A DNA stretch of 64,000 nt from Candidatus Kapaibacterium sp. (GCA_963664875.1 OY761611.1:3392001-3456000), one strand, 5' to 3'. Positions 39,031 to 64,000 are shown, numbered from the stretch's first letter. Translations and numbers: made by a program. Notes: generated from the sequence alone by a model not told the origin.

Positions 39031-39127
39031 AGTGTTTGTTCCTTCTTTGAATAGTAAAATTTTATTTGATAGACCTAATTAGGAAAAAGGTTTCGATTGT
39101 TTACTTTCTTCCATAGATATTATTTCA

Positions 39128-39230
39128 ATTTCCCCTCCTGAGCGATGTGCTGAGCGAGCAACGCGAGTCGAAGTAGGGTGCGTGAGCGAAGCGAGGGCGG
39201 GGTGGAAAAACACGAAGCACAATATTTAGT
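39128..39230. repeat. REP mosaic inside the phage-like operon
   Basis: tcccctcctgag[cgatgtgctgagcgagcaacgcgagtcgaagta]gggtgcgtgagcgaagcgagggcggggtgg; matches 42529 and 44771. Confidence 0.8.
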
Positions 39231-42469: not shown

Positions 42470-42880
42470 AAGAGCCTGAAAGGCTCAAAGCAAATAGCAA
42501 AAGTCTTATTGCAAAGAATAAAAAAAATTCCCCTCTTGAGCGATGTGCTGAGCGAGCACAGCGAGTCGAAGTAGGGTGCCCTGAAAGGGCGGGGTGGAAA
42601 AGAACCTTATATCTACCACTACTCTAAAAAATATATCGCCGAAGTTATTTATATAGAAAACATACTGCATACTCTGAAAATTTGTGCTTCGTGTGTTTCC
42701 ACCCCGCCTCACCTTCGGTGAGCCACCCCTCAAGAGGGGAATGGTGAGGGTTTTGGCTCAAAATATTAGAGAAAGAGCCTGAAAGGCTCAAAACAATTAG
42801 CCCGGGGCAGCGCCCCGGGAAAAGAAACGTCCACACCCTCGTTTTCTATACCGAGCTAAGCGAGGTGAGTGGCGAAAACA
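42470..42880. repeat. Large REP mosaic
   Basis: Two gagcctgaaaggctc, cccggggcagcgccccggg and a tcccctcttgag...caagagggga inverted pair; 42586-42725 recurs at 44802-44940 and 42472-42578 recurs at 46428-46534. Confidence 0.85.
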
Positions 42881-46427: not shown

Positions 46428-46748
46428 GAGCCTGAAAGGCTCGAAGCAAATAGCAAAAGTCTTATTGCAAAGAATAAAAAAACTTCCCCTCTTGAGCGAT
46501 GTGCTGAGCGAGCATAGCGAGTCGAAGTAGGGTGGAAACAAACGAAGCACAAATTTAAACAACATAAAAAATATAAATTAAATAGATAAGTTTAGCGATA
46601 CTATTTTCTGGGGCAGTGATTTGGATAAGATATTTATCCACCTCGTCTTACCTTCGGTGAGCCATCGCTCGAGAGAGGGGAATGGGCAGACTGCATCTCG
46701 ACTCATTTTATTCGCTCGATAACCGCGAGTGTAACGAGTCGAAGTGCG
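46428..46748. repeat. REP mosaic between the duplicated genes
   Basis: Built from segments shared with 42472-42578, 44910-44958 and 44972-45030. Confidence 0.8.
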
Positions 46749-48415: not shown

Positions 48416-49723
48416 CTACTTCCCGTCATTATACACTCTGCCGTATATCAGCAGCGAAATAGCAGAAAGCAAGCCTATCCCTGCGAACACATACCATAAA
48501 TAATGTGCATTAGCATATAACTGCTCATGCGGAATGCCTGCATATTGCGGAAGTTTCGGATTCGGACAGAAAGTATCTAATAAAAAACCGGATAAAATAA
48601 AGCCTAAAAGATTTGAAATAAACGAATCTAAATGGCTAAATCCCATATACAAGCCTTCTTGGCCCTTCGGCGCCTGCAACGAGAAATATTCCAAATATCT
48701 CGGAGAAATAAAACTTTCTGCTAATCCCTGAAATACTATGCCGATAATCATCATTAGAGTAATAGGGTGCATTGAAAAACCAATAATGCTGATAGAATTC
48801 CCTGTGATTTCGCCCAATATATGACCGGTTGCCATTGTAAAAGCTGACAAAGGCATTAGCAGCATACCAATGCTCATTGCCGTGATTGCTTTGAAGCGTT
48901 TCATTAGCTCTGTAACAAGATACACCATTGTTACCACTACCAGCGGGTTAACGTTTGCTATCCATTCCGGTTTGGCTTCTTCGCCGATTAGCCTGATTAC
49001 GTATTTAGGCATCGATGCGTAAAGTTGCTGCTGGATTATCCAAAATCCCGAAACTATCACTATCAAAATCATCAGCCTGCGGTTTGTAAGCAACATCTTT
49101 AAGCCATTGATAATTTCGTCGAGTGTTTTGTTTGTTTCATTTGCATCTACATTCCTATAAAAAAGCAGAACCATGATAAAAGCGACAAGTGACAAACCGC
49201 CTGCATAAATATTGATCCACTGCACACCAAAATCGAGGCGGATAGGGTAGGCAAAGGTTTTACCAAGAAACGAACCCACATTGACCAACATATAAAATAT
49301 TGAAAACGCTTTAGCTCTGTTTTCTGCTGTAGATGATTTGGCTACAGTCCCTGCAATTATTGATTTAATGAACGAGCCGCCAAACATCAAAATTGCGAGC
49401 GACAAAAGCACTGTCAGCTTGGTGGGGACAAATGCAAGTGTGAAATAACCAACAGTAAGCATCGCAAATGCAAGAATAATAGCCTTGCGAAAGCCTATTT
49501 TATCAGAATATGTGCCGGTAAACATCGGCAGCAGGTATAAACCCGAAGAAAATACGCCAACAATAATGCCTGTTTCAATGTCTGTGAAGCCCACAACATC
49601 AGTAAGGTATAAAGTAATTGAAATAAACATTGCGTAAAAAGCGGAACGTTCGAGCAGTTCTACAAAATTTGCATTCCAAAATGTGCCGGAATATCCAAAG
49701 TAAGTTTTCAGTTTGCCTTCCAA
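48416..49723 (-). CDS. MFS transporter, POT/PTR-like
   Basis: ELLERSAFY (ExxERxxxY variant), G.YSDKIG.RK, AFSIFYMLVNVGS, SPR..EY....AP...G.Y.G. Confidence 0.8.
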   Translation of the reverse strand: MEGKLKTYFGYSGTFWNANFVELLERSAFYAMFISITLYLTDVVGFTDIETGIIVGVFSSGLYLLPMFTGTYSDKIGFRKAIILAFAMLTVGYFTLAFVPTKLTVLLSLAILMFGGSFIKSIIAGTVAKSSTAENRAKAFSIFYMLVNVGSFLGKTFAYPIRLDFGVQWINIYAGGLSLVAFIMVLLFYRNVDANETNKTLDEIINGLKMLLTNRRLMILIVIVSGFWIIQQQLYASMPKYVIRLIGEEAKPEWIANVNPLVVVTMVYLVTELMKRFKAITAMSIGMLLMPLSAFTMATGHILGEITGNSISIIGFSMHPITLMMIIGIVFQGLAESFISPRYLEYFSLQAPKGQEGLYMGFSHLDSFISNLLGFILSGFLLDTFCPNPKLPQYAGIPHEQLYANAHYLWYVFAGIGLLSAISLLIYGRVYNDGK

Positions 49724-49971
49724 GTTGTCTGTACTCCATTATGATTGTAGTTTGTGAATAGTAATCAGATTTATCGGAAAACAATTTAAAAAATATTTAC
49801 AATTTTGGGCTATTAAAAATGTAAATCAACTAAAATCAGATATTTAAGAATATGTTGGCAAAAGAAAAATAATAAGAATTATGCAGTTCTATTATGATAT
49901 GTAAATGGTGAATATAACGTGATATAGGAGAAAGTTGGAAAAAACAGAGTAGGGGAGAGCATAAGGTATAA

Positions 49972-50010
49972 TAAAAAAAAGTTGCTTCTCGGATAGAAAG
50001 AAGCAACTTG
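49972..50010 (-). terminator. Terminator downstream of tRNA-Arg
   Basis: aagttgcttc...gaagcaactt hairpin with a T run on the minus strand. Confidence 0.65.
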
Positions 50011-50045
50011 CAGCTTTTTGAAAATCTTAGATTTTCTTACATTAG

Positions 50046-50119
50046 TACGCCAGAAAGGATTCGAACCTTTGGCCTACAGCTTAGAAGGCTGTTGCTCTAT
50101 CCAGCTGAGCTACTGGCGC
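50046..50119 (-). tRNA. tRNA-Arg (anticodon TCT), CCA not encoded
   Basis: GCGCCAGTAGCTCAGCTGGATAGAGCAACAGCCTTCTAAGCTGTAGGCCAAAGGTTCGAATCCTTTCTGGCGTA folds as a cloverleaf. Confidence 0.97.
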
Positions 50120-50246
50120 GTCATTTAATGTGATACAAACTTACGGCTTTTTTGAATTACATGCAAGAAAAAAAATATTTTTTTTATACGTTATTTTTTG
50201 CTTGCATTGTATCGATTATTGCCGTATATTTGTATCATAAATTTTT

Positions 50247-50341
50247 GGTCAAGCCCTTTGTGGTTAAGTCAAACCCAATCCCGCCAGGTCCGGAAGGAAG
50301 CAACGGTAAGTTTCGTCTTAAGGCACAAAGTAAGCTTGGCT
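50247..50341 (+). ncRNA. ffs: Signal recognition particle RNA (4.5S)
   Basis: Helix-8 motif cccgccaggtccggaaggaagcaacggt inside a long hairpin (ggtcaagc...gcttggct), then a T run. Confidence 0.92.
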
Positions 50342-50517
50342 TTTTTTTTATATTTACAAACCTAACAAATAAATCCCCAATTTAATAAAGTAAATCCCCA
50401 ACTTTATCAAGCAAATTCCTCAAAATATCATCGGCAATAATAGCACAGATAAAAAATTTGCTATATTGCAAACAAATCTCAACTTGAAAGATTATTTGGA
50501 AAAGATAAGAAAATCAG

Positions 50518-50722
50518 TCGGCAAGGAACTCGATCGAGAAAGCGAACTGGGCGACCACGGCGTACGTAAAGTAGATTACGGGCTGGGCAGGTTTACTACT
50601 ATAGATCTAAGGTCACTGAGCGAGCGCAGCGAGTCGAAGTGTGGGAGAAATACTACGCATGGTCTCCGTACCAGTATAGTATGAATAATCCGGTGAGTTT
50701 GGCGGATTGGAATGGGAAGGAT
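50518..50722 (+). repeat. RHS core C-terminal header 1 (frameshifted by an insert at 50608-50640)
   Basis: GKELDRESELGDHGVRKVDYGLGRFTTID / WEKYYAWSPYQYSMNNPV..DWNGK. Confidence 0.85.
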
Positions 50723-51304
50723 TTTAAATTGCTTCCTAACTCTACTACCAATATGCTACTTGCACAAAACAATAATACCACTATTGCAACTTTTACGCAT
50801 TTTAATGGGATTCAACAAACTAATTGGAATACAATTATGAATAACCAAATTACTAAATGGCAAAGTTACGCTCCAAAAGTTGCAAAATTTGCTACTGAAA
50901 ATGATATTAGTGTGATGTCAGCTGCTAGTTTTAAAAAAGAATATTCCAATCAAGTTGCTGCTCTAAATCCAAATACTGGAATGCTGGAAGTTAAGTTTCC
51001 TGAAGAAAATGAAGACAATACATTGGAGCAAGATTTACTCCATGAAACTGTTCATGTTATGGGGTATAGTGAATATGCTGCATGGTCAGTTGATTTAGCT
51101 TTGGGGAATGTAGACAAAGATACTTTTCTATATAATTTGAAAAAGAATGAAAGTTTTAGGAATGATTATATTTTTGGAAATCATGAAGCATACAAAGATA
51201 ATAGTATAGTTACCTCACAAAGAAATAATCTAAAAAATGGTAAAATAACTTATGAACAGCTTGTTCAACAAATGGTTGAATATGGGAACAGTATAATAAA
51301 ATGA
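50639..51304 (+). CDS. Orphan RHS toxin tip 1, HExxH zincin-like
   Basis: Follows the DxxG cleavage motif; LLHETVH...EY.A. Confidence 0.65.
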   Translation: MWEKYYAWSPYQYSMNNPVSLADWNGKDFKLLPNSTTNMLLAQNNNTTIATFTHFNGIQQTNWNTIMNNQITKWQSYAPKVAKFATENDISVMSAASFKKEYSNQVAALNPNTGMLEVKFPEENEDNTLEQDLLHETVHVMGYSEYAAWSVDLALGNVDKDTFLYNLKKNESFRNDYIFGNHEAYKDNSIVTSQRNNLKNGKITYEQLVQQMVEYGNSIIK

Positions 51305-51981
51305 GAAAGTTAATCATTATATTATGTAGTGTAATCATTTTTGTTGCATGTACTTATGAGCAGCATGTATTACAATTACCTGCATATAGATCTTCTGTTA
51401 CTATAGAAAGATATGTAGCTAAGATGAGAGGGTATAAACCTTTTAATACATTGAATGATTCTGTAGGTATGAAAATGGTGTTTGAAAATGTAGGAGCTTC
51501 GAACAAAGCCTACTTTGGAATAACCCTAGAACCAAATGAATTTAAAGTAAAGTCTTCAGATTTAGAAATCAGACTAACTCGATATGTCAGTTTACAAACA
51601 GATAAACCAAATCTTGGACCCCAAAATATTTTTATAAGCCTTAAACAGACAGATACATTATTCAATGCTTTTTTTATTATTTGGGAGCCTGAGCTGGATA
51701 CTGCTTCACCTTACTTTATAGATAATCCTGAATGGCTCAATAGAAAATCACAAAATATTATTACAAATCTAACCAAAGAAGAATTGTTAAAGATAATTCC
51801 TGACATAACAATAGAGAATGTCAAAATGGTATCTTCCAATATCTTTATCAATGACAATATTTCCAGATTAAGGTTGGATTTCTATGAAAATATTCGATTT
51901 GATAATCTTGAACTTGGAATGACTTATGAGTATTGGAATCAGTATAAACGAAATGAAGATATCGGTATAAAATACAGATAG
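51301..51981 (+). CDS. Putative immunity lipoprotein 1
   Basis: 4-nt overlap with the toxin stop; lipobox FVAC; function inferred from position. Confidence 0.6.
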   Translation: MRKLIIILCSVIIFVACTYEQHVLQLPAYRSSVTIERYVAKMRGYKPFNTLNDSVGMKMVFENVGASNKAYFGITLEPNEFKVKSSDLEIRLTRYVSLQTDKPNLGPQNIFISLKQTDTLFNAFFIIWEPELDTASPYFIDNPEWLNRKSQNIITNLTKEELLKIIPDITIENVKMVSSNIFINDNISRLRLDFYENIRFDNLELGMTYEYWNQYKRNEDIGIKYR

Positions 51982-51983
51982 CC

Positions 51984-52425
51984 ACGACCAATGCACCGCC
52001 TACATCGGCAAGGAACTGGACAGAGAAAGCGAACTTGGTGACCACGGAGTGCGTAAAGTAGATTACGGGCTGGGCAGGTTTACTACTATAGATCTAAGGT
52101 CACTGAGCGAGCGCAGCGAGTCGAAGTGTGGGAAAAATACTACGCATGGTCACCGTACCAGTATAGTATGAATAATCCGGTGAGTTTGGTTGATTATTAC
52201 TCAATTTTTCCTTGTTATCAACTATTGCCCTCCTGCATTTGAAGTCAAGGTTAAGAAGGATTAGTCAGCAAATGGTGTGACATTTTCGGTGAAAATTGAG
52301 AATCAGGTATCTCCTAAGTCTGGGAACAAATCCAAATTAGCAAAAAAACAAGAAGAATTAACTAGTAAAGTACAACAAGCTGCAAGTGAGATGACAGAGC
52401 ATGGAAAAGCATTTATTAGCCAATA
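51984..52425 (+). pseudogene. RHS header 2 (insert at 52095-52127) with a deleted/degenerate toxin tip
   Basis: Header frame stops shortly after NNPVSLVDY; a residual frame with an internal TAG ends overlapping the next gene. Confidence 0.65.
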
Positions 52426-53222
52426 AGAATTCTGTTTGGTTGTGTATATTTTTAATTTGGATAACTATTGTAAATAGTTGCTCTAATATAGATAAACCTG
52501 ACAAAAAAAAGTTTGAAATACCTCTAACCGAGTATAAGATTCCTGTTGTTGATAGCCTTAAGCTGTCTGGATATAATATAAGAGGAACAAATTTTGAAGC
52601 AAATTATCGTCACTGGCAAGTATTAACAATTGATTCATATTTAAAAATTAGGCACTATTTTTCCGCCGACAGCATTGCATTTACAAATTGTGACCAAGTC
52701 ATATGCTATCCTACAATTTCTTATTTAATGCAAGAACATCATAATATAAACGAGAAATTAGAAAGTCTTTTGGAATTTAAAGTTCAAAACTTAATTGCTA
52801 TAAAAGAAGAAGACAGTGCTTCATTCAACAAAGCATTTTATATATCATGGCTTAATGAACCACAATTGATTCCTTCGGGCAAGCAAGGTCACCACAGTTG
52901 GTTTACAACCATTTATAGCGATGAAATAGATTCAACAACTTTTGCAGTATTTACAACTTTAGATTCCTTGATATTGAGAAGGATTTATCCCAAATATAAA
53001 GGTCTTATTACTCAAATACATATCGATACTATATTTTTGCCTTTTGTTCAAAGAAATTCTATTGATTACTATCCTGAGATAAAAATTGATTCGTTTTACT
53101 ACAGCAATTGTGTATTACCGCACGAATACTCGAGCAAGTTAAATTGGTTTTCAAAAGAGGCAAGAGATTCACTCAAACTAGAATTAGATTCCATGATGAA
53201 AATAAAATCTATTCATTTTTAG
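52401..53222 (+). CDS. Putative immunity lipoprotein 2
   Basis: Hydrophobic leader ending VNSC; occupies the immunity slot. Confidence 0.55.
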   Translation: MEKHLLANKNSVWLCIFLIWITIVNSCSNIDKPDKKKFEIPLTEYKIPVVDSLKLSGYNIRGTNFEANYRHWQVLTIDSYLKIRHYFSADSIAFTNCDQVICYPTISYLMQEHHNINEKLESLLEFKVQNLIAIKEEDSASFNKAFYISWLNEPQLIPSGKQGHHSWFTTIYSDEIDSTTFAVFTTLDSLILRRIYPKYKGLITQIHIDTIFLPFVQRNSIDYYPEIKIDSFYYSNCVLPHEYSSKLNWFSKEARDSLKLELDSMMKIKSIHF

Positions 53223-53422
53223 GAATATGAGATGTATTGTTTGTCTCTATGCTGAATCAAACCCCAAAAAGCTTGAGTCAATATATAAAAATTTGATTAT
53301 CTTCCATTTGGGAAGCTTGCTCCTGCCATTGGTGGAGACCACGGCGTACGTAAAGTAGATTACGGGCTGGGCAGGTTTACTACGTGTGATCTAAGGTCAC
53401 TGAGCGAGCGCAGCGAGTCGAA

Positions 53423-54088
53423 GTGTGGGGAAAATACTACGCTTGGTCTCCGTACCAGTATAGTCTGAATAATCCGGTGAGTTTTTTGGATGAGAATGGG
53501 AAGGATTTTGGTTTTGTAGTTAAGCCAACTGAAGGAGCAAATTTTGGACATACGTATTTATATTTTCAAGACAAACAGGGACAATGGTATAGATATGATC
53601 AGGGCAATTATGAAAACAGAGCTCCGTCAGGTGGTCGGGCAACTGTTACAGGCAAGGACTATGATGCAACTGTAAAAATTGATCCTGTAGATGGAGTGCC
53701 TGATGATGCAATATTATTTAAGACAACTGAAAATCAAGATAAGGCAATTAGTGAAAGTGCGTTTATGTCTCAATATTTGCACAATAATGATTACTTACCT
53801 TATAATCTGTATCACAATAATTGCACAGATGCAGCCGTAGATGTTATATTGGATGCTATATACAACGGTACTAGTGTCAATATTTTTAATCCTTGGGATA
53901 TGCCTGCTCCTAATACATGGTTCAAATATTTGAAAGAAGAAATCAAAAAAGGAACTCAAAAGACAGATTTTAGGGATTTGGATAAAACAGTAGATTCTCT
54001 TGAAGAAATGGAAGAGCAGTTACCACAACAAAAGAGCGTTGCCCCTCAAGACAATACAGCAGTAAAAAAGCAGGAGATTAAACAATGA
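53423..54088 (+). CDS. Orphan RHS toxin tip 3, permuted papain-like (His...NC) fold; header at 53288-53505, insert at 53392-53424
   Basis: DENGK, then FGHTYL and YNLYHNNCTDA. Confidence 0.65.
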   Translation: MWGKYYAWSPYQYSLNNPVSFLDENGKDFGFVVKPTEGANFGHTYLYFQDKQGQWYRYDQGNYENRAPSGGRATVTGKDYDATVKIDPVDGVPDDAILFKTTENQDKAISESAFMSQYLHNNDYLPYNLYHNNCTDAAVDVILDAIYNGTSVNIFNPWDMPAPNTWFKYLKEEIKKGTQKTDFRDLDKTVDSLEEMEEQLPQQKSVAPQDNTAVKKQEIKQ

Positions 54089-54579
54089 TTAGTTATACTA
54101 AAATAGTATTTTGTTTTGGCATTATTGTTTTTCTCTTATCAACGTCTTGCCAATCAGACAGACAAAAAGCTGATATTAATATAGATACTATTTTTGATTA
54201 TAGTAATTACTTGATTCAATATAGTTTAGAAGCTAATGAAATAGAACAACTGAAAGATAAATTTTATAATGATTTAGGTTATAAATCAAGAATAAGAGGT
54301 AAATTAAAGTTGTTATTGTTGAATGATTCACTTGTTACAATAGATAAAAATGATATCGTAATAAAACTCGATAGTCATAGATTTTCTATAAATACTGACT
54401 ATGCAGATATATTTAAAGGACCTGGAAGCATAGATTTAAAGAAAGATATCAATTATTCTATAGAATGTTTCTGGTATTTCGATGATACATTATTATTGAA
54501 TGATATTAAAAAGATTAGACTCGGAGATGTAAAATATGGAGAGTCACATATTAGAATTAAAGAGAAACTAACAAAATAA
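54085..54579 (+). CDS. Putative immunity lipoprotein 3
   Basis: ATGA overlap with the toxin stop; lipobox STSC. Confidence 0.6.
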   Translation: MISYTKIVFCFGIIVFLLSTSCQSDRQKADINIDTIFDYSNYLIQYSLEANEIEQLKDKFYNDLGYKSRIRGKLKLLLLNDSLVTIDKNDIVIKLDSHRFSINTDYADIFKGPGSIDLKKDINYSIECFWYFDDTLLLNDIKKIRLGDVKYGESHIRIKEKLTK

Positions 54580-54653
54580 TCTATCAGTAAGATTATGGAT
54601 GATTATTATAATCAAACCCCAAAAAGCTTGAGTCTTACTATTAGAAAATCGAA

Positions 54654-55442
54654 AAATTTGATTATCTTCCATTTGGAAAGCTTGCTCCTGCCATTGGTGG
54701 CGACCACGGCGTCCGTAAAGTAGATTACGGGCTGGGCAGGTTTACTACTATAGATCCACTGTGGGAGAAATATTATGCGTGGTCACCGTACCAGTATAGT
54801 ATGAATAATCCGGTGAGTTTGGCGGATAGGAATGGGAAGGATATTTATTTAGTAATGTGGAAGACAGATTCAGATAACTGGGGACATGCGGGACTAGCGT
54901 ATGATATCAAAGATGCGAATGGAAATCCAACGGGGACATATGCATACATGGATCTTTGGCCAACGGAAAGTATAGGTATGTTCAATTACGATGAAGACGT
55001 TACTCCATATTACCAAGGCGTAGGACTGAATGACTTGACAAAAATAGATAAAAATGATTTTGATAATTCTAGTAATGATGATATTCAAGAGCACAAGCCA
55101 TCTTATCCTGATGGAATTATAAAAATTCCTACAAATACAGAAGATGAAAAGAAAATTTTGCAAAAAGCTGCTTCTTTTCAAAACGACAACAAGTCTTACA
55201 ATAGTGAAAGTTGGAATTGCAGTTCTTTTGTGTCAACTTTAATTCAGCAAGCTTATCCAAATTTTTTAGCAATAGAGTACATTAAGTGGTCGAAAATGTT
55301 TGTATCTACCCCTCATAAATTATTTCAGAGTGCAAAAAAAATTGAAGGGGCTGAGGTCATTAAAGATCCTTGTGAAGATGTGCAAGAAGGATTTGAAAAT
55401 GCTACGTCAGCAAAATCAAAAAAATCGAAAAAGAAAGAATAG
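54654..55442 (+). CDS. Orphan RHS toxin tip 4 with an uninterrupted header, permuted papain-like fold (no start codon before ATG 54801)
   Basis: Open frame KFDYLPFGKLAPAIGGDHGVRK...TTIDPLWEK...DRNGK; WGHAGL and YNSESWNCSSFV. Confidence 0.65.
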   Translation, partial: KFDYLPFGKLAPAIGGDHGVRKVDYGLGRFTTIDPLWEKYYAWSPYQYSMNNPVSLADRNGKDIYLVMWKTDSDNWGHAGLAYDIKDANGNPTGTYAYMDLWPTESIGMFNYDEDVTPYYQGVGLNDLTKIDKNDFDNSSNDDIQEHKPSYPDGIIKIPTNTEDEKKILQKAASFQNDNKSYNSESWNCSSFVSTLIQQAYPNFLAIEYIKWSKMFVSTPHKLFQSAKKIEGAEVIKDPCEDVQEGFENATSAKSKKSKKKE

Positions 55443-55468
55443 CATACTTAAAATAATTAGGATAAAAT

Positions 55469-55927
55469 ATGAAAATAGTAGCAATAGTTATAACATTAAT
55501 AGCTTTAATTATTTTGTGTTTGTTATGTTACAAATCAAGGTATTCTAATATTTTTGATATAATACCTTTGAAAAGAAATGAGATTGTAAAAATTGAAATT
55601 AAATACATTATACGTCAGAAAATTGATAGTATGATGTATAAAAGTCAATACCAATTTTATGAAAAAAAGAAGTTTAGTTTAGTTGTATATGAGCAAAGTT
55701 TGCAGGATAGTATATATTACAATGCCAATATCAAACAAGATATAAAGAGATCTATGTTTAATATACGTTCTATAATTGTAATTAATGATAGTATTTCTAT
55801 AAATCTAGCTCCACAAGGCTGGAGTTTATGCAGAATAAATGGTAATCAATATAAAATAGATAATAATATTTACAATGTATTGCAAAAAATAGTTACATCA
55901 AATACTGAACACATTCCTTTCTTTTAG
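55469..55927 (+). CDS. Putative immunity protein 4 (N-terminal membrane anchor)
   Basis: Hydrophobic N-terminus; follows the toxin; very AT-rich. Confidence 0.55.
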   Translation: MKIVAIVITLIALIILCLLCYKSRYSNIFDIIPLKRNEIVKIEIKYIIRQKIDSMMYKSQYQFYEKKKFSLVVYEQSLQDSIYYNANIKQDIKRSMFNIRSIIVINDSISINLAPQGWSLCRINGNQYKIDNNIYNVLQKIVTSNTEHIPFF

Positions 55928-56135
55928 GGACTAAAAAAATAGTAGATCATGTTAATCTTAGTTAGATTTAAAAGGTCGAATATAATAAATATCATAACAA
56001 GACTCATGCTATAACCCAGCTTGAGTTTTTTTAGTAGGTAGCAAACCGAAAAATTTGATTATCTTCCATTCACCTAAAAAAATATCACAAAACTTCGGAG
56101 CTCACCTCTCAGATAACTCAAATACGACTTAAGAT

Positions 56136-57353
56136 TTAAAAGAGTCTGATGCCTAATGCCATGCCAAACCAGTCTCTGGTCCAATGATGATCGTTCCTGT
56201 AAACGGGGTTGCCTTTGTCGGTAAAGTTCGAACCGTCGTTGATGATTGAATAGTAAAAATTGAAGGTTGGGCCGGCAAAAACTTTTATACCGTTTGTCAG
56301 CTTGAAACCTGCCACTACGTGAGTTCGGGTGATAAAGTGCAGTTCATTTGTCCAAAAGCCTTTGTCCGGTTCGTTGATGTGCTCGGCACTCTGCCCGGCT
56401 TCTATATAAAACCTGTCGCTCAGCTCAGCGTTTACTGCCCAAGTAAAACCAAGCAGCCATCTGTCTTTATCTTCCTGATCTATACCAAAATAAGCTATAT
56501 TTACAAATTTGTCGTTACCGGAAACGATGCCGACTCGTGCTATTTTATTCTCATCTGTCCAAATTGACAAATCAACTCCGGTTTCGCCGACAAAAGAGAA
56601 AATTCCAAGCGAAGCACCATCGTTTGAAGCGGCTATGTTGATAGGAGCTACCTGCACTCCCGACATATCTTCTGCTACATTGACAATACCGGAAATCTGC
56701 ATACCTGTAAAGTCAGCAGCAGAGCTTGCTATACCGGAAATCTGCATACCTATGCCGTCGGATGCGGAGCTGTTAATTCCCGATATTTGAATTCCGTTCA
56801 TTCCGTCCGCCACAGTGTTGCTTATGCCTGCCACCTGTATCCCGTTCAAATTTGATTCTATATTATTTGCAACAGATGCAATCTGCACTCCTTGGGTAAA
56901 GCCGGTACTCAAATTGAAAATACCTGCCACCTGAATACCGAGCATTTCCGCATGATTAACATTAGTAATGCCTGCTATCTGAATGCCGTTGAGCCCAAGG
57001 TGGCTGATGTTTACTATGCTGGCATTCTGGATGCCACGCACAAATCCCTCAGCTCTATTGCCTATTCCCGAGATCTGAATACCTGTAACATCTTCGCGAT
57101 AGTGATTCCAGATGAGACCATACTCTATGCCTTCCAGCTTGTAAGCCGAACCTACGATATTCAGCGATATATGATTGACTATTCTGCCGTATGGGTAAAC
57201 GATTTCGCCCACGGAAAGGCCGGGCATGATAGAAAAATTGACAGGCATATATTTGTATCTTGCAGGCGTGGCAGTGTTGAGCTTTATTTCATGATCCTGA
57301 GCCTGCGAGGCGATGCCTATCATTACTAAAAATATGAGAATGTATTTTACCAT
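56136..57353 (-). CDS. Secreted/surface repeat protein (LA_2272-like GxQIxGIxN repeats)
   Basis: Signal peptide; about 10 repeats; C-terminal GIRLF. Confidence 0.7.
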   Translation of the reverse strand: MVKYILIFLVMIGIASQAQDHEIKLNTATPARYKYMPVNFSIMPGLSVGEIVYPYGRIVNHISLNIVGSAYKLEGIEYGLIWNHYREDVTGIQISGIGNRAEGFVRGIQNASIVNISHLGLNGIQIAGITNVNHAEMLGIQVAGIFNLSTGFTQGVQIASVANNIESNLNGIQVAGISNTVADGMNGIQISGINSSASDGIGMQISGIASSAADFTGMQISGIVNVAEDMSGVQVAPINIAASNDGASLGIFSFVGETGVDLSIWTDENKIARVGIVSGNDKFVNIAYFGIDQEDKDRWLLGFTWAVNAELSDRFYIEAGQSAEHINEPDKGFWTNELHFITRTHVVAGFKLTNGIKVFAGPTFNFYYSIINDGSNFTDKGNPVYRNDHHWTRDWFGMALGIRLF

Positions 57354-57556
57354 TTGGTCTTAGAGCATTTCCGTATAAAAAAATTGAAAAAATAGAAAAA
57401 ACCGAGCCAATTTTCAAATAGATTTGGTTTTTAATTCCATTTCAAGTAATTTTTGATTTCTTGGGTTTAATATGGTCAAAACGGTTTTTCAAATTCCGTT
57501 CAATCTGCACCATAAGGGAAATATTTTTTGTTAAATAAATAGAAAGACAAATACTA

Positions 57557-59566
57557 ATGGAATTTGGTATTAGAAACGTTATTTTTATCGTTTTGTTTCT
57601 TGCTGCTATGGGTTTTCTCGGAGAAAATATCCATAGACTAATCTCATATCTCAAAACAGCCAAGCAGGAAAACAAAACTGACAGAATTTTAGACAGAATC
57701 AAAAAGACATTGAACGTAGCACTTTTTCAGTCTAAAATCATGCGCGACCCCGTAGCCGGGCCTATTCACGCCGGCATATTTTGGGGTTTCCTTGTGCTGA
57801 TGTTTTCTGCGGCAAGCTCCATCATGGAAGGCTTCGGCGTCAGACATTTCTTTGATTTTATGGGACCGGTCTGGACTCTGATTACTCTATCTACCGATAT
57901 TTTTATCCCTGTGGTCATTGTGGCAGTAATTTGGGCTGCCCAGAGAAGATTTATTCTTAAAGAAAAGAGATTGCAGGTAGAAGGAGAAGCAGGCGAGGCA
58001 GCTCTAATATTGGCTATGATTTTTACTATCGTTACTTCTCTGATGCTCGAAAATGCTGCTAACATCAAAATGGGCATAGACGCTCAGCATGCCTTGAGAC
58101 CTTTTGCGGGCATTATCGCAGGATTCCTTTCTGCTGATATAGCTCCCTATATTCATGAAGTTGGTTTCTGGCTGCATATCGGTGTGATTATGGCATTTAT
58201 GAACTTTTTGCCTTACTCAAAACACCTTCACGTTTATACCTCAATTCCGAATGTATTTATATCGTCTATAGAGTACCCTAATAAACTCGAAAAGATGAAT
58301 TTCGAAGATGAAAATCTAACTAAATATGGTATAGTTGATATCGACGATTTGAATTGGAAATCGATGATGGACGGCTATTCATGTACCCACTGCGGTAGAT
58401 GTACCAGCGTTTGCCCGGCTAATCTTACAGGTAAGCAGCTCGATCCGAGAGAAATAATTGTTCAGGTTAGGGAGCGTACTTTCGACATTGGTGACATACT
58501 TGTCAAAAAACAAAAATTCGGCGAAGATGTTGAGCTTTCTGATATAGAGCAGCAAAAACTTGCTAAAACATTTGTAGGCGAATATCAAAATATCGACGCC
58601 ATTTGGCAATGCACTACTTGTGGTGCTTGTATGCAGGAATGTCCGGTTTCTATCGAGCATGTACCTGTTATAGTTGGTATGCGAAGAAATCTTGCAATGA
58701 TGGAAGCGAATTTTTCGCCTGAGCTTCAAACCACTTTTGGCAATTTGGAAACAAATTCTACTCCTTGGGCTTTTTCCTCAGCCGAACGTGCTGACTGGGC
58801 TGAAGGCTTGGAAATACCGACAGCAGCAGACACTCCTGATTTCGATATACTCTTTTGGGTAGGCTGTGCTGGTAGCTATGACGACAGAGCAAAAAAAATC
58901 TCTGTTGCCTTTTCTAAACTGATGCAAAAAGCAGGAGTCAACTTTGCTATATTAGGCACAGAAGAAGCCTGCAACGGCGATGTCGCACGCAGAGCCGGCA
59001 ATGAGTACCTTGCTAATATGCTGATAACAATGAACATGGAAACTCTCACACGCTACAATGTCAAAAAAATAGTAACTATATGCCCTCACTGCTTCAATAC
59101 ATTCAGAAATGAATATAAGGACTTTGGTGGCGAGTTCGAGGTAGTGCATCATACAGAATTTTTGAATCAGCTGATAAAAGACGGTAAACTCACAATCAAA
59201 GCCGGTAGCAAAATGGAAATAGCATACCATGACTCTTGCTATCTCGGCAGATATAATGACGTTTACGAAGCACCTCGCAACGTAATCGAAAGCGTGCCCG
59301 GGCTAAACATACTCGAAGCCGACAGACACCACGACAGAGGTCTTTGCTGCGGTGCCGGTGGTGGCCAGATGTTTATGGAAGAAACAGAAGGCAAGCGTGT
59401 AAATATTGAAAGAACCGAAGAACTTTTAGCTACCGGAGCAACTACAATAGCTGCTAACTGCCCATTCTGCATGACAATGATCAGCGATGGTGTAAAATCG
59501 AAAGACAAAGATGAAGAAGTAAAAGTTTTGGATATCGCAGAAATACTATTAGAACAAGTAGAGTAG
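57557..59566 (+). CDS. Membrane-bound Fe-S oxidoreductase (HdrD/FadF-like, CCG domains)
   Basis: TM domain with PYSKHLH; CTHCGRC...CP, CTTCGAC...CP; WVGC, CPHC, YHDSCYLGR, CCGAGGG, CPFC. Confidence 0.88.
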   Translation: MEFGIRNVIFIVLFLAAMGFLGENIHRLISYLKTAKQENKTDRILDRIKKTLNVALFQSKIMRDPVAGPIHAGIFWGFLVLMFSAASSIMEGFGVRHFFDFMGPVWTLITLSTDIFIPVVIVAVIWAAQRRFILKEKRLQVEGEAGEAALILAMIFTIVTSLMLENAANIKMGIDAQHALRPFAGIIAGFLSADIAPYIHEVGFWLHIGVIMAFMNFLPYSKHLHVYTSIPNVFISSIEYPNKLEKMNFEDENLTKYGIVDIDDLNWKSMMDGYSCTHCGRCTSVCPANLTGKQLDPREIIVQVRERTFDIGDILVKKQKFGEDVELSDIEQQKLAKTFVGEYQNIDAIWQCTTCGACMQECPVSIEHVPVIVGMRRNLAMMEANFSPELQTTFGNLETNSTPWAFSSAERADWAEGLEIPTAADTPDFDILFWVGCAGSYDDRAKKISVAFSKLMQKAGVNFAILGTEEACNGDVARRAGNEYLANMLITMNMETLTRYNVKKIVTICPHCFNTFRNEYKDFGGEFEVVHHTEFLNQLIKDGKLTIKAGSKMEIAYHDSCYLGRYNDVYEAPRNVIESVPGLNILEADRHHDRGLCCGAGGGQMFMEETEGKRVNIERTEELLATGATTIAANCPFCMTMISDGVKSKDKDEEVKVLDIAEILLEQVE

Positions 59567-59682
59567 AAATAGTATTTCACTTACATAATCCGGTACTTAT
59601 GTTTATAGCATAATATCTTCTGATAAAGAAGTAAACACCGTCAAATATATTATTGCAAAATAGCAAAAATATGTTTATTTTT

Positions 59683-59718
59683 TAAGCACTGAGTAGTTAA
59701 TTCTACTCAGTGCTTTTT
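59683..59718 (+). terminator. Rho-independent terminator
   Basis: aagcactgagtag-ttaatt-ctactcagtgcttttt. Confidence 0.75.
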
Positions 59719-59749
59719 ATAATTTGGAGAACCAACCAATGCGAAATAT

Positions 59750-60803
59750 TTTTCAATTTAACTATTTATCTACACTGCTACTTAAAAGGAATTTATAATT
59801 TTATAAAAATATATAGTTTGACGAATTGACAAAAAAGAGAGGCTGAAAGCCTCAAAATAGATTAGCCCATGGCAACGCCATGGGTATAAGGCATCAAAAA
59901 AATTAGAGCCCTGAAAGGGCGGGAAGAAATGGCATGGCACACTCTTTAGGGTGTCCCGGGGCGATGCCCCTAGCTAATATCTTTCAGCCTTACAGACTGT
60001 ATGCAGAGTCCTTTTCAATTTGACAATTTATCCGCTCTGCTACTTAAATTGAATTTATAATTTTATAAAAAAATATATAGTTTGACGAATTGACAAAAAA
60101 GAGAGGCTGAAAGCCTCAAAAGAGATTAGCCCATGGCAACGCCATGGGTATAAGGCATCAAAAAAAATTAGAGCCCTGAAAGGGCGGGAAGAAATGGCAT
60201 GGCACACTCTTTAGGGTGTCCCGGGGCGATGCCCCTAGCTAATATCTTTCAGCCTTTCAGGCTGTATGCACAGTCCTTTTCAATTTGACAATTTATCCGC
60301 TCTGCTACTTAAATTGAATTTATAATTTTATAAAAAAATATATAGTTTGACGAATTGACAAAAAAGAGAGGCTGAAAGCCTCAAAAGAGATTAGCCCATG
60401 GCAACGCCATGGGTATAAGGCATCAAAAAAATTAGAGCCCTGAAAGGGCGGGAAGAAATGGCATGTCACACTCTTTAGGTGTCCCGGGGCGATGCCCCTA
60501 GCTAATATCTTTCAGCCTTTCAGGCTGTATGCAGAGTCCTTTTCAATTTAACTATTTATCTGCTCTGCTAGTAAAAGGAATTTATAATTTTATAAAAAAA
60601 TATATAGTTTGACGAATTGACAAAAAAGAGAGGCTGAAAGCCTCAAAAGAGATTAGCCCATGGCAACGCCATGGGTATAAGGCATTAAAATAAATTAGAG
60701 TCCTGAAAGGGCGGGAAGAAATGGCATGGCACACTCTTTAGGGTGTCCCGGGGCGATACCCCTAGCTAATATCTTTCAGCCTTTCAGGCTGTATGCAGAG
60801 TCC
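59750..60803 (+). repeat. Tandem array of four ~264-bp internally deleted copies of the adjacent tnpA element
   Basis: Units start at about 59750, 60012, 60277 and 60540; a fifth start at 60804 runs into tnpA. Each unit is AT-rich leader + three hairpins + 16 nt of tnpA + right-end hairpins. Confidence 0.92.
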
Positions 60804-60894
60804 TTTTCAATTTAACTATTTATCTGCTCTGCTATTTAAAAGGAATTTATAATTTTATAAAAAAATATATAGTTTGACGAATTGACAAAAAAGA

Positions 60895-61537
60895 GAGGCT
60901 GAAAGCCTCAAAAGAGATTAGCCCATGGCAACGCCATGGGTATAAGGCATCAAAAAAAATTAGAGCCCTGAAAGGGCGGGAAGAAATGGCATGGCACACT
61001 CTTTAGCCGAAGTATATATTCACATTGTTTTCAGTACAAAAGACAGAGCACAAATAATAAAAAATGATTTAAGTGCCAGATTGCATTCCTACCTGGGAGG
61101 AATTTGCAATGGATTAAATTGTACCCCTCTCTCAATTGGAGGTTATGAGGATCATATTCATATACTTTGTGTTTTATCAAAAAAGACTAGCATTGTTGAA
61201 CTTGTTGAAAATCTCAAAAAACAATCTTCACGATGGATAAAAGAGCAGGACGCAAAATATTCATCTTTTTATTGGCAGGCCGGATATGGAGTATTCTCAG
61301 TAAATAAATCTCAAATATCTGATATTCGAAACTATATCGAAAATCAAGTCGAACATCACAAACGTGTAGATTTCAAACAGGAATACAAAGCCATCTTAGA
61401 CAAATTAGGAGTAAAATATGATGAAAGATATTTGTGGATATGACCATCTTGCCGCCCTTTCAGGGCTCTGGTAGTTTGGTTTGGGGTGTCCCGGGGCGAT
61501 GCCCCGGGCTAAGATCTCTCAGCCTTTCAGGCTGTAT
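60895..61537 (+). mobile_element. IS200/IS605-like (REP-associated) element with long inverted hairpin-bearing ends and no tnpB
   Basis: Left ggctgaaagcc/cccatggcaacgccatggg/gccctgaaagggc is mirrored on the right by gccctttcagggc/cccggggcgatgccccggg/agcctttcaggct. Confidence 0.85.
60991..61443 (+). CDS. tnpA: Y1 HUH transposase (IS200/IS605 TnpA / RAYT-like)
   Basis: HIVFSTK.R, DHIH (HUH), WQ.GYG.FSV, YIENQ (catalytic Tyr), C-terminal YDERY. Confidence 0.93.
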   Translation: MAHSLAEVYIHIVFSTKDRAQIIKNDLSARLHSYLGGICNGLNCTPLSIGGYEDHIHILCVLSKKTSIVELVENLKKQSSRWIKEQDAKYSSFYWQAGYGVFSVNKSQISDIRNYIENQVEHHKRVDFKQEYKAILDKLGVKYDERYLWI

Positions 61538-61567
61538 ATTTAATTGAAATTTTGGACTTTACAGTCC

Positions 61568-61741
61568 CTCAGTGACCTTAGATCACACGTAGTAAACCTG
61601 CCCAGCCCGTAATCTACTTTGCGCACGCCGTGGTCGCCCAGTTCGCTTTCTCTGTCAAGTTCCTTGCCGAGGTAGGCTGTGCGCTGGTCGTCGTTACCAC
61701 TTATGGCAGGAGCAAGCTTTCCAAATGGAAGATAATCAAAA
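61568..61741 (-). pseudogene. RHS header 6, truncated inside the insert, with no toxin tip
   Basis: FDYLPFGKLAPAISGNDDQRTAYLGKELDRESELGDHGVRKVDYGLGRFTTCD, then taaggtcactgag, then similarity ends. Confidence 0.75.
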
Positions 61742-61816
61742 ATTATTTTTTAAGAAAGACTCAAGCCTGAAAAAGTGTAAGTCTTTCTATGAGTTATACT
61801 AGTACAGGGAATATTA

Positions 61817-62233
61817 TTAATTTCCTAGGCTTAAAATATAATTTCTTTGCTTTTTAGGCAAAAAATTAGCGATAAACATTAATAATATGTTTTGATTTTT
61901 AACTACTCTGTAATTACCACATTGAATTTCACCATTCTCAAACACTTTCACAGTTGCAAAGCTACTATCAATATCATCCAGATCGTCATATAGTAATATA
62001 GTTAAAAGAATTTTACTGTGAATTGTTCCAGCATAAAGTTCATAGTTTGTAGAATCTTTAAGATAAATATTCAAACCATTAATAGATGCACTTGATCGAT
62101 CATAGATGCTATCTAGTGCTAAATCCATATTTACTTTTATACCTACAAAACTTATATTCTCAATATTCTGAGATTTTGCCAAATAGATAGATACCGACGA
62201 TAGTAAACAAAAATATACAAATATATATTTCAT
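61817..62233 (-). CDS. Putative additional immunity protein (secreted)
   Basis: Signal-peptide-like N-terminus; abuts the previous stop. Confidence 0.5.
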   Translation of the reverse strand: MKYIFVYFCLLSSVSIYLAKSQNIENISFVGIKVNMDLALDSIYDRSSASINGLNIYLKDSTNYELYAGTIHSKILLTILLYDDLDDIDSSFATVKVFENGEIQCGNYRVVKNQNILLMFIANFLPKKQRNYILSLGN

Positions 62234-62689
62234 TTATTTCATCTCCTCTAATAGATATGCATCTATCATGAAATAGTAGCAAGGAAGCATGTCAAATAAT
62301 GTGTTTTTTGAATCTTTTGGAATCGAGTAATATTTAGATCTGTATAAACAATAATCTAAAGTCACATTAAAACCAAATGTATCTCTTTGATGTTCAAATT
62401 CTTTAATAAAAACATGTTGGATAGTATAAAGCGGAGGCATTTGTTTAACTATATTTTTTTCAACAATAATAGAGTCTGTAATTTGAGTGAAACAAGAATA
62501 TATATCAATTCCTTTATACAATAGATAATTATCATAATGCAATTGACATATCTCTTCATTACTATGAATATACAAGCCCACTCCACTGTCAAAAGTATAA
62601 ATATGTATTTTATATCTATCACAATTAGCATGTCCAACTAATACTGAAAGAATAGCAAAAAGTAATAATGTTGATATTTTCTTATCCAT
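62234..62689 (-). CDS. Putative immunity protein 5, currently in frame with the upstream toxin
   Basis: Internal MDKKISTLLLFAILSVLVGHANC signal peptide at ATG 62689, after an A10 tract. Confidence 0.55.
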   Translation of the reverse strand: MDKKISTLLLFAILSVLVGHANCDRYKIHIYTFDSGVGLYIHSNEEICQLHYDNYLLYKGIDIYSCFTQITDSIIVEKNIVKQMPPLYTIQHVFIKEFEHQRDTFGFNVTLDYCLYRSKYYSIPKDSKNTLFDMLPCYYFMIDAYLLEEMK

Positions 62690-63418
62690 TCGTTTTTTCC
62701 TTTTTTTTTTGGGTACTTCTGTTGGAGAAGAAACATTTTTAGGTTTACCTTTGTGATCTTCTCTGCTTGATTCATCTGGGATAGCATCGCATGCTCTTTT
62801 CTCAGGTCCAGCAATAACTCTTTCTTCTTCATCATTGTCGTACTGTGGATTATAAGTTTTTATGGTTTTGATATATTCAAGTATAATATCATTGACAGAT
62901 TGTTTGAATTCCTTACTTGGAGGGAATCCATTGTTCTGCCAAAACTCCATATCGGATATATTTAATTGTTCAAAAGCATCGAAAATTGGAACAGCATGCA
63001 TTATTTCATGATATAAATTCATAGCAGGAGATTGCCCACTACCGTTTTCAAAAATAAGTCCTAATAAAGGAGACCACTCAACACGAAAAGCATTATTGCC
63101 AGTTCTAAATCTTTGTATATGAGAAGAATGTATGTCAATATCAAGTCTAACATGTGAATTATACATATCAATTAACTTAATTGCATCATCTTCTGGTAGA
63201 TTATCAATGAGATAATCTAAAGCCTAATTGAAATACATTTTATCCTGTTCAGTAGCATTAACTAATCTAAACTCTTTCCCATCATAATCAGCCAAACTCA
63301 CCGGATTGTTCATACTATACTGGTACGGAGACCATGCATAATATTTTTCCCACAGAGGGTCACACGTAGTAAACCTGCCTAGCTCGTAGTCCACTTTGCG
63401 GACGCCGTGGTCTCCCAT
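62682..63418 (-). pseudogene. RHS header 5 + HExxH metallopeptidase-like toxin tip with an in-frame TAG (63224-63226)
   Basis: ORFs 63418-63224 and 63166-62234 share a frame with one TAG between them; SPAMNLYHEIMHA...EE.RVI.G.E. Confidence 0.7.
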
Positions 63419-63485
63419 AGGGTTATAAGCATATCTCCATTCTATTCGGGCTTGGTCGTTGATATCTAACTAAAAAAGTGTCTTT

Positions 63486-64000
63486 TTATTCGTACAATAG
63501 ATATTTTTTACGCTTTTCTTTGAATTCCTTAACATCTTTATCAATAAACGCTTTGAAATCAAAAGAGGGATTATCCAAAATTGCGGCAATAATCTTTGCT
63601 GTTCCGGTTACCTTTTTGAACATAGGGATTTTGCTCTTTATTTCGGAATATTTGAAAAGATCGGGACTCTTCTTGCGTAGTTTGAAAAGCAGTTCGACAA
63701 CCGCTGTAAAAGGTTTGAAATCGCCCTCTCGCTCGAAAAAAATGATATACCCGAGGCAGGGTTTGCTCAGACCGGAATACATCCCGAAAAGAGGAGAAAA
63801 TTCGACAGGCTCTGCCCTAATAATCGAATTGGAGGGTTGCTCATCTAAAATACCTACACAATTAAGATAAGGATCGCCCAAGTAGCCAAAAGGCCTGTTG
63901 GTACCAATACCAATGCTTACTATACCCAGCTCGCCAAGCACTCCAAGGTATGCAAGCCCCTTAGCAGCATCAACGGTAGGAACAAATGGAGAGGTGGGGA
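63486..64000 (-). CDS. DUF1343/NamZ-like exo-beta-N-acetylmuramidase, C-terminal part (runs off the window)
   Basis: PTSPFVPT, VSIGIGTNRPF..LG.P, F...R.KYLLY. Confidence 0.75.
   Translation of the reverse strand, partial: PTSPFVPTVDAAKGLAYLGVLGELGIVSIGIGTNRPFGYLGDPYLNCVGILDEQPSNSIIRAEPVEFSPLFGMYSGLSKPCLGYIIFFEREGDFKPFTAVVELLFKLRKKSPDLFKYSEIKSKIPMFKKVTGTAKIIAAILDNPSFDFKAFIDKDVKEFKEKRKKYLLYE

Follow-up and report, generated by a model that had tools for sequence, protein, structure and literature searches.

Why do four of the six RHS recombination headers in one stretch of a Candidatus Kapaibacterium sp. genome carry the same short insert at the same codon? The stretch, called here the window, is 64,000 nucleotides (nt) of GCA_963664875.1 (OY761611.1:3392001-3456000), and its headers (H1 to H6) are fragments which stand before silent toxin-tip cassettes. 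A sequence-only reading of the window had claimed one fixed-site insert in four of the six headers, and this was borne out when the sequence was read again on both strands. Here we surveyed the source genome (G000) and four congeners (G001 to G004), which gives five genus genomes in all. A structured repeat of 33 nt, AAGGT-CACT-core-AGTG, forms arrays around a GIY-YIG nuclease gene, and the insert is a single whole unit of it. The probable history is that a selfish repeat associated with the nuclease got into dispensable header DNA at two sites, after which recombination between the paralogous headers spread it and changed its form.

The insert in the window headers

The insert of H1, H2 and H3 is TAAGGTCACTGAGCGAGCGCAGCGAGTCGAAGT, 33 nt which are identical at 33/33 positions and are placed between GATC and GTGGG (50608-50640, 52095-52127 and 53392-53424). 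The three headers read ..ACTA(C/T)(T/G)(A/T)(T/G)(A/T)GATC, then TAAGGTCACTGAGCGAGCGCAGCGAGTCGAAGT, then GTGGG... In H1 the unit plus the T preceding it stand in place of the CACTG of an intact header, a net change of +29 nt, and the length change and frameshift which had been claimed for H1 to H3 are correct. The upstream frame continues through the insert and meets a stop 32 codons past the G of GRF. H6 holds the first 13 nt of the insert, as had been read, and its unit is broken after CACTGAG at the junction with an IS200-like repeat block, with unrelated repeat DNA and an IS200-like gene beyond. The headers given as intact, H4 (GATC-CACT-GTGGG, 54753-54765) and H5 (GACC-CTCT-GTGGG, about 63361-63349, minus strand), are both uninterrupted, and the TTID and TTCD haplotypes each exist with and without the insert.

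When 25 nt of the insert are used as a probe, the window has 6 matches at no more than 3 mismatches, against 0 expected from 100 shuffles. For the core copies reported near 39142, 42541 and 46497, the presence of a core of about 25 nt was confirmed; the copies differ from it by 1-3 mismatches and have different flanks. They form a second core subfamily (39100-39210, 42520-42600 and 46480-46540) within a longer element, TTCCCCTC..core..AGGGTGG..GGGGTGGAA, and these elements are located behind genes for beta-propeller proteins sorted by the type IX secretion system.

The header family and its full-length gene

Genome-wide, G000 has 15 headers of this family (family 1), so the six in the window are not the family's total. 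Six are intact with the conserved box, the full-length gene among them; three are H1 to H3 with the complete insert; three have the left junction GATC/TAAGGTCACTG (a slash within a sequence marks a junction) and are rearranged within the unit (H6 and the headers at 171367 and 1068311); and three are cut otherwise, two of them at GAT/AGTATAAA.. beside a terminator-like hairpin. The latter two remnants, at 3214105 and 3520511, end one base from the left junction of the unit; the array which follows the full-length gene terminates in one of them. Since they end near the left junction without having a unit, the same codon is a breakpoint even where no unit is present.

The only full-length gene found with a family-1 header is at G000 3511273-3519828, about 63 kb beyond the window. 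It has a frame of 2851 amino acids (aa), 2640 of them upstream of the header, and its site is intact. Its C-terminus matches TIGR03696 (RHS-associated core) at 4.7e-12, and H4 gives a partial match to the same model (positions 34-75, 6.5e-07), which is below the cut-off since H4 is truncated. The headers are thus parts of the RHS-associated core, and the full-length gene carries the same header. The D-P-L-W motif at the site is not where the RHS core ends; the TIGR03696 match puts the site about 24 codons before that end, and the last conserved box of the core, WEKYYAWSPYQYSMNNPVS..D.NG, follows it. The whole 2851-aa protein had no Pfam match at E<0.001 and the RHS repeats themselves were not detected; as the C-terminal RHS-associated core alone is recognised, the shell may be very divergent or of a different repeat type.

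Nature of the repeat unit

The anatomy of the unit was taken from its arrays: a tag AAG.T, four bases, a core GAGCGA-N5-9-GAGTCGA and four bases complementary to the first four. The insert had been labelled a REP-type (repetitive extragenic palindromic) element and a member of a dispersed repeat family; the second statement is supported, and for the first, the unit is not an ordinary REP, being a member of an array repeat associated with a GIY-YIG gene. A 23-nt core occurs 35 times in G000 at no more than 4 mismatches. A strict census gives 25 units, of which 12 are in the array around the GIY-YIG gene and 13 are dispersed, and 6 of these 13 lie in RHS-core remnants. The unit is present in all four congeners and in 0/36 genomes of other genera at no more than 2 mismatches.

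The predicted fold of the insert (4+3+2 bp, -2.5 kcal/mol) is no better than that of shuffled sequences. The closing stem has 4/4 Watson-Crick pairs in 118 of 143 array units, and these 118 comprise CACT/AGTG (63), CGTT/AACG (28) and CATC/GATG (27); despite the weak predicted fold, such a covarying stem argues for structure.

A 24-nt form of the core, CTGAGCGAGCnnAGCGAGTCGAAG, is found unchanged in very distant phyla, in at least 124 stretches by an exact-pattern scan with one genome per species. Among the matches listed there are Acidobacteriota, Eremiobacterota/Vulcanimicrobiota, Planctomycetota, Actinomycetota, Clostridia, groups of the candidate phyla radiation (CPR) and others; each of two positions flanking the core pairs in 119 of 122 distinct instances, with several pair types; the 5′ consensus is GTCATC and the usual form tGTCATC-core-GATC; and none of the 124 loci is in an RHS context. 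In three CPR records (Parcubacteria/Paceibacterota) the core is, by eye, directly beside an apparent 3′ end of a tRNA gene.

An Rfam scan by E-value of window positions 49000-64000 and of the GIY-YIG array gave no family at the unit, just chance microRNA-like matches on pairs of units. A hammerhead-like reading, from a resemblance to CTGA..GAA, was ruled out by inspection and by the lack of an Rfam match. The ends of the units have no target duplication as would mark a transposon or a miniature inverted-repeat transposable element; CACTG, GGATTC or TGCTT is replaced instead, and dispersed units also replace about 5 nt inside other hairpin repeats.

Recurrence in the genus and in a second header family

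The congeners were surveyed for family 1 by a box-based search, which gave 29 non-redundant sites, 26 of them classifiable. The unit stands directly 5′ of TGGGAG at 18 of the 29, while 8 are intact and 3 are other; all are in G001 to G003, and the same search gave no family-1 match in G004. The right junction is constant, ..GTCGAAG(T/A)(G/A)/TGGGAG, and the left junction is variable (GATC/, ACTAC(A)/CCTTAG.. or GGGCGA/ACTTCAGCACACTC..). Among the units there are long and short forms, doublets, and units into which inverted ones are nested after CACTG.

A second header family (family 2) is also an RHS core, ..YYPFGMLVP..RFGF/NGMERDDE.., with TIGR03696 matches at 2.1e-09 and 1.7e-08. Six of its 11 headers in G000 are intact (GCTTC GGATTC AATGG); the unit replaces GGATTC in three (+29) and a short variant does so in two (+20). 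The family-2 site is occupied in G001 and G004 as well, with +28. The orientation of the unit relative to the gene is fixed in all copies seen.

Beyond the genus, 60 other genomes of the family were sampled and the header family was found in 41. Header matches which start at residue 20-21, as an interruption at this site would give, belong to this genus only, barring one contig-end artefact; that one, in G048, had been a candidate for an interrupted header in another genus and was ruled out as a contig end. In other genera of the family (loci L209 of G072 and L210 of G079), orphan headers have their start a few codons ahead of L-W, next to unrelated GC-rich repeats. Such breaks just before L-W make the position 5′ of the box a general junction in the header family. 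Metagenome scans for the right junction and for the box gave 0 matches each, and the contigs of public runs (4 of 7 runs) break at every header.

Effects on coding

The net length change varies between copies (+29, +28, +20 and others), so the unit is not a conserved frame device, and a programmed frameshift or bypass was ruled out for this reason. Three functional claims had been attached to the insert. A hairpin switch does not agree with the weak fold, and no inverted partner site or recombinase was found next to the headers. A block to in-frame fusion with an RHS core does not follow either: the exchanges between species which are described below place the re-association of header and tip in the box of 60-75 nt downstream of the unit, and a crossover there would result in an insert-free fusion. 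As for a GTG start in place of CTG, in-frame GTG reading frames do exist at 50639 and 53423; what is not supported is the idea of a selected feature, since the codon before TGG in the 18 unit-bearing headers of the congeners is GTG in 10, GTA in 7 and GAA in 1. With GTG in 10 of 18 copies and out of frame at site 2, the site of family 2, the unit is not a conserved start codon. A frame which is broken variably, a start which is not conserved and the absence of the unit from the full-length gene together indicate a tolerated selfish repeat in dispensable DNA.

Evidence of recombination among headers

The tips behind H1 and H3 differ, so duplication of whole cassettes does not explain their common insert. 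On the left flank, long and short headers, the codon pairs TATA and GTGT, and the presence or absence of the insert are found in every combination, and the four-gamete pattern is violated there only. The right flank has TACTACGC in 3/3 complete inserts and also in 2 of the 6 intact headers. This is the signature of one insert origin followed by exchange of the left flank.

The sequence-only reading had offered recombination among headers as an alternative to repeated targeted insertion, and it is directly supported by pairs of cassettes with and without the unit. Within G000, H2 and the intact header at 169255 have a common header, box and tip remnant, with a clean 29-nt gap between them. Between species, G002_C69_8758 with the unit and G003_C2_298145 with an intact header have a common cassette of 99.86% identity over 700 nt, in a comparison which starts 40 nt past the start of the box probe; by BLAST the whole shared stretch is 97% identical over 1675 nt. 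In this pair, 48 nt stand in place of 57 nt of header, and the homology begins some 55 nt upstream of the unit. Two cassettes whose tips are 99.86% identical carry different forms of the unit. Such plus/minus and mixed-form pairs indicate that headers and tips have often been re-associated, through the flanking header and the box, and the start of homology about 55 nt upstream means that the unit is not a cassette boundary.

Tip cassettes of 99.86% identity over 700 nt are shared by two species in two comparisons (G002 C69 with G003 C2, and G002 C86 with G003 C2), which suggests a recent exchange of cassettes between species of the genus.

The GIY-YIG gene and comparison with known systems

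A link with a GIY-YIG nuclease of the genome had been suggested, and it is real as a gene neighbourhood. The stand-alone GIY-YIG gene of G000 (2363811-2364113; frame open for 100 aa, 97 aa scanned) matches PF01541 at positions 1-76 with 7.1e-16 and sits inside a cluster of units at 2363-2364.5 kb. In 5/5 genus genomes the sole stand-alone GIY-YIG gene has dense arrays of alternately oriented units on either side, with 19 core matches in the fetched region of G000 and 31, 36, 68 and 30 in those of G001 to G004. The nearest solved relatives of the protein are single-domain UPF0213 proteins (PDB 1zg2 and 1ywl), and it had no NCBIfam match. PF01541 genes were found in 5/5 of the distant core-holding genomes searched, counted as presence per genome and not as adjacency, and one of these has a 654-aa protein only.

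The closest known system is that of the Ssn nucleases with their NTS/SRM repeats (PMC11893778). Ssn proteins are single-domain GIY-YIG enzymes which cut only single-stranded DNA (ssDNA), a few nt upstream of an oriented hairpin repeat, and SsnA of Neisseria meningitidis cleaves in one repeat orientation only (Chenal et al. 2025; PMC11893778). In the same text the ssn genes are flanked by their own repeats, NTS are rarely in genes (2%) and cluster beside membrane-protein genes, and NTS with SsnA modulate the integration of transforming DNA in Neisseria; pilE and pilS1-4 are named in a supplementary gene table whose selection basis lies outside that text (PMC11893778). The likeness consists in a single-domain GIY-YIG gene of about 95-100 aa, in oriented structured repeats on both its sides and dispersed in the genome, and in a 5′ tag which resembles the GTCAT tag of NTS, the cross-phylum consensus being GTCATC. 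There are also differences. The unit does not fit the published SRM pattern, which is matched 5 times in G000 and 4 times in a control of reversed sequence, never at a unit; a 4-bp stem surrounds a conserved core of 20-22 nt here, against a 7-bp palindrome with a short loop; the best solved relatives of the protein are the UPF0213 proteins; and, against 2% of NTS in genes, 6 of the 13 dispersed units are in RHS-core remnants. By analogy, nicking by the GIY-YIG nuclease at the unit, as an ssDNA cut site, is plausible.

Other repeat systems are similar in part. REP elements with their mosaic and doublet forms (BIME, REPIN) and their RAYT genes, which are of the Y1 HUH type, are likewise short structured repeats, single, in inverted doublets or in arrays round a single-copy nuclease-type gene, and are genus-specific in detail. 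In the present case the partner gene is GIY-YIG and not Y1 and there is no target duplication, and the four Y1_Tnp genes of G000 are flanked by other hairpin repeats and not by the unit, as a RAYT would be by its own; H6 merely abuts one of them. Rickettsia palindromic elements are short repeats which are inserted in coding sequences at recurring positions, in frame, and are tolerated in functional genes. The unit likewise stands in protein-coding sequence at a recurring position, but it breaks the frame and sits in silent remnants. The cassettes themselves are like orphan rhs cassettes and the toxin-immunity cassettes of contact-dependent inhibition, being arrays of tips with immunity open reading frames (ORFs), each after a fragment of the RHS core (TIGR03696), with one full-length gene elsewhere. 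What sets them apart is that a repeat associated with a nuclease breaks up about 60% of the header fragments at a single codon, and in the literature on GIY-YIG enzymes with interspersed or extragenic repeats no description of such headers was found. Switching of rhs tips by homologous recombination has reportedly been seen in Salmonella and E. coli.

Weighing of the explanations

The course of events which we consider probable would be as follows. The unit would have its home in the arrays around the sole stand-alone GIY-YIG gene, a layout similar to the one of the Ssn nucleases and NTS/SRM. Copies would have entered non-functional RHS-core remnants before silent tip cassettes at least twice, at site 1 (the site of family 1) and at site 2 of family 2, each entry replacing 5-6 nt of the target. 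Comparison of the headers shows that the unit then passed from one paralogous header to another, through homologous recombination or gene conversion, and that nested units and deletions have remodelled it further. By analogy with Ssn, the GIY-YIG enzyme may bind the unit in ssDNA and cut a few bases upstream, which would place a break beside the left junction and could explain why the left side is a mosaic and the right junction is fixed. What the unit is, its gene neighbourhood, its covarying stem, the two sites, the plus/minus pairs and the mosaic flanks are observed, while any enzymatic action on the unit, the mode in which it moves and any effect on tip switching are inferred.

Several points weigh against this reading. 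The occupancy of the site by units, 18/26 in G001 to G003 and 6/15 in G000, is more than a neutral passenger would lead one to expect, as a newly displaced tip should at first have its header intact, and it hints at a bias of gain or at selection. Long forms, short forms and doublets with a nested inverted unit all abut the identical right junction /TGGGAG, which calls for either several events at the same spot or extensive change in situ. That the dispersed units, about 13 in number, include two independent RHS-core sites is more than a crude expectation by area. Cutting, nicking or transposition by the GIY-YIG enzyme would rest on the likeness to Ssn, and the unit has no match to the published SRM pattern. 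The searches were also box-based, and such searches are blind to headers without the box.

Some of these points would be met by repeated, site-preferring insertion or homing, in which a nuclease-repeat system or the repair which it triggers re-inserts units at the same header spot. The target would be the palindrome CCAC-T-GTGG, which is like the stem of the unit, and as insertion recreates ..GTG/TGGG, units would accumulate. The varied forms and doublets at an identical right junction in G000 to G003 agree with this, as do the two junctions, GATC/ and /TGGGAG, which a long unit of G000 and a short unit of G002 have in common, the joining of nested inverted units and of the IS200-like block inside units after CACTG or CACTGAG, the replacement of about 5 nt within other hairpin repeats by units elsewhere, and the high occupancy of orphan headers. 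We still hold it unlikely, since site 2 (TTC/GGATTC/AATGG) has neither CACTG nor a palindrome, the three identical complete inserts of G000 have one right-flank haplotype as expected of a single origin, and in the plus/minus pair between species a whole block is replaced and the flanks differ, which resembles conversion and not a clean insertion. In addition, no mechanism of repeat spread is given even for Ssn (PMC11893778). Selection might instead hold the unit at the border of the homology box so that the nuclease cuts ssDNA there, which would limit or direct the recombination or transformation of cassettes. The fixed orientation of the unit, its position always immediately 5′ of the box which is re-associated with tips, and the left side as the rearranged one would suit such a role, and so would the cut of SsnA a few nt upstream of the repeat in one orientation (PMC11893778), the pil genes of the supplementary table and the NTS clusters beside membrane-protein genes. 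This control of recombination, proposed by analogy, is rather more doubtful than homing, as intact orphan headers persist alongside unit-bearing ones in the same arrays, tips are lost in 3 of the 6 unit-bearing headers of G000, and the core loci of other phyla were, among the matches listed, outside RHS contexts.

Two further roles for the unit have little probability. As an expression element it would give a GTG start, and perhaps signals, for separate translation of the tip; the GTG is in frame with WEKYY in 3/3 complete inserts of G000 and two 221-aa ORFs start there. The GTA and GAA codons of the congeners and the frame at site 2 speak against this, to our knowledge there is no evident way for a tip to be exported without the RHS shell, and we regard it as very improbable. 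That the unit is an attC-like recombination site bounding mobile tip cassettes is hardly credible, for the homology of the pair between G002 and G003 starts at the header start, with or without the unit, and no integrase was seen beside the arrays, where no search aimed at integrases was made; a constant right junction with a left junction variable across species is what would be expected of it.

Other features of the window

The positions of the features are collected in Table 1. The island of orphan cassettes begins just past a tRNA gene (50046-50119, minus strand) and the gene for the signal recognition particle RNA (50247-50344), and is about 63 kb from the full-length gene. No family was found for the tips in Pfam or NCBIfam, and both ORFs of cassettes 1 and 3 are without a Pfam family. 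A 310-aa ORF behind H5 (62234-63166, minus strand) has a weak match to Peptidase_M91 (effector protein; E 0.0021, below the cut-off), and the tip frame of H5 has a stop after 51 codons.

The IS200-like block next to H6 (ORF and array) is a copy of a block at G000 3603757, where it abuts CTCAGTG of a terminator hairpin. That near-identical copy of the Y1 gene, with its upstream intergenic DNA, is about 150 kb away. The unit is not the repeat of this IS200-like neighbour; the block joins H6 inside the unit, after CACTGAG. Parts of the block are just under the Rfam threshold for Acido-Lenti-1 (34.6 bits vs 37).

Table 1. Location of the units, headers, cassettes and neighbouring elements, in positions of the window.
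Feature	Position	Strand	Remarks
H1 upstream header remnant (..GKELDRESELGDHGVRKVDYGLGRFTTID)	50517..50607	+	RHS-associated core part, no N-terminal gene body
H1 complete unit, 33 nt (tag AAGGT, stem CACT, 20-nt core, stem AGTG)	50609..50641	+	in RHS-core remnant
Conserved box after H1 unit (WEKYYAWSPYQYSMNNPVSLAD.NG)	50642..50715	+	last conserved RHS-core stretch; header-tip re-association region
Cassette 1	50639..51981	+	tip ORF 221 aa from GTG 50639 (50639-51304) and overlapping 226-aa ORF, presumed immunity
H2 unit, 33 nt, identical	52096..52128	+	tip behind H2 truncated
H3 unit, 33 nt, identical	53393..53425	+	short-type header, TTCD haplotype
Cassette 3	53423..54579	+	tip ORF 221 aa from GTG 53423 (53423-54088) and overlapping 164-aa ORF
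H4 intact site GATC CACTG TGGGAG (D-P-L-W-E; GATCCACTGTGGG)	54753..54767	+	contains mini-palindrome CCAC-T-GTGG
Cassette 4	54699..55927	+	intact header and tip, frame open to 55442, partial TIGR03696 match; then 152-aa ORF
H5 intact site GACC CTCTG TGGG (GACCCTCTGTGGG)	63349..63361	-	uninterrupted
H6 partial unit, first 13 nt TAAGGTCACTGAG after GATC	61568..61580	-	GATC+TAAGGTCACTGAG = 61584-61568
Dispersed core-only copy	39150..39174	+	3 mismatches; other subfamily, flanks ..GATGTG / AGGGTG..
Dispersed core-only copy	42548..42572	+	1 mismatch; subfamily as at 39150
Dispersed core-only copy	46504..46528	+	2 mismatches; subfamily as at 39150
Tandem array, 265 bp x 4.8 hairpin-repeat blocks	59750..61006		adjoins Y1 transposase gene
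IS200-like Y1 transposase gene beside H6	60991..61443	+	flanked by other hairpin repeats, not by the unit

Significance of the findings

For annotators, many RHS fragments of this lineage which appear frameshifted owe the interruption to a defined element, not to random decay. The locus offers such a nuclease-repeat system a definite genomic target which recurs, namely a single codon of the recombination header before silent cassettes, seen in four species and in two header families. Natural plus/minus pairs on near-identical cassettes make the spread of the repeat, and the effect of an ssDNA cut on cassette recombination, directly testable. The characterisation of small GIY-YIG nucleases which have repeats of their own dates from as recently as 2025 (PMC11893778).

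It is a tentative and rather doubtful proposal that an Ssn-like nuclease, together with the unit placed exactly where the last homology box begins on its 5′ side, breaks one strand of silent RHS cassettes at a specific site. If it is true, the break would decide on the cassettes that are recombined into the expressed gene, or would protect cassettes against replacement by incoming DNA. It would then be a programmed, nuclease-guided system for the diversification of polymorphic toxins, to which the silent pilin cassettes of Neisseria, if these are beside NTS, would be the parallel.

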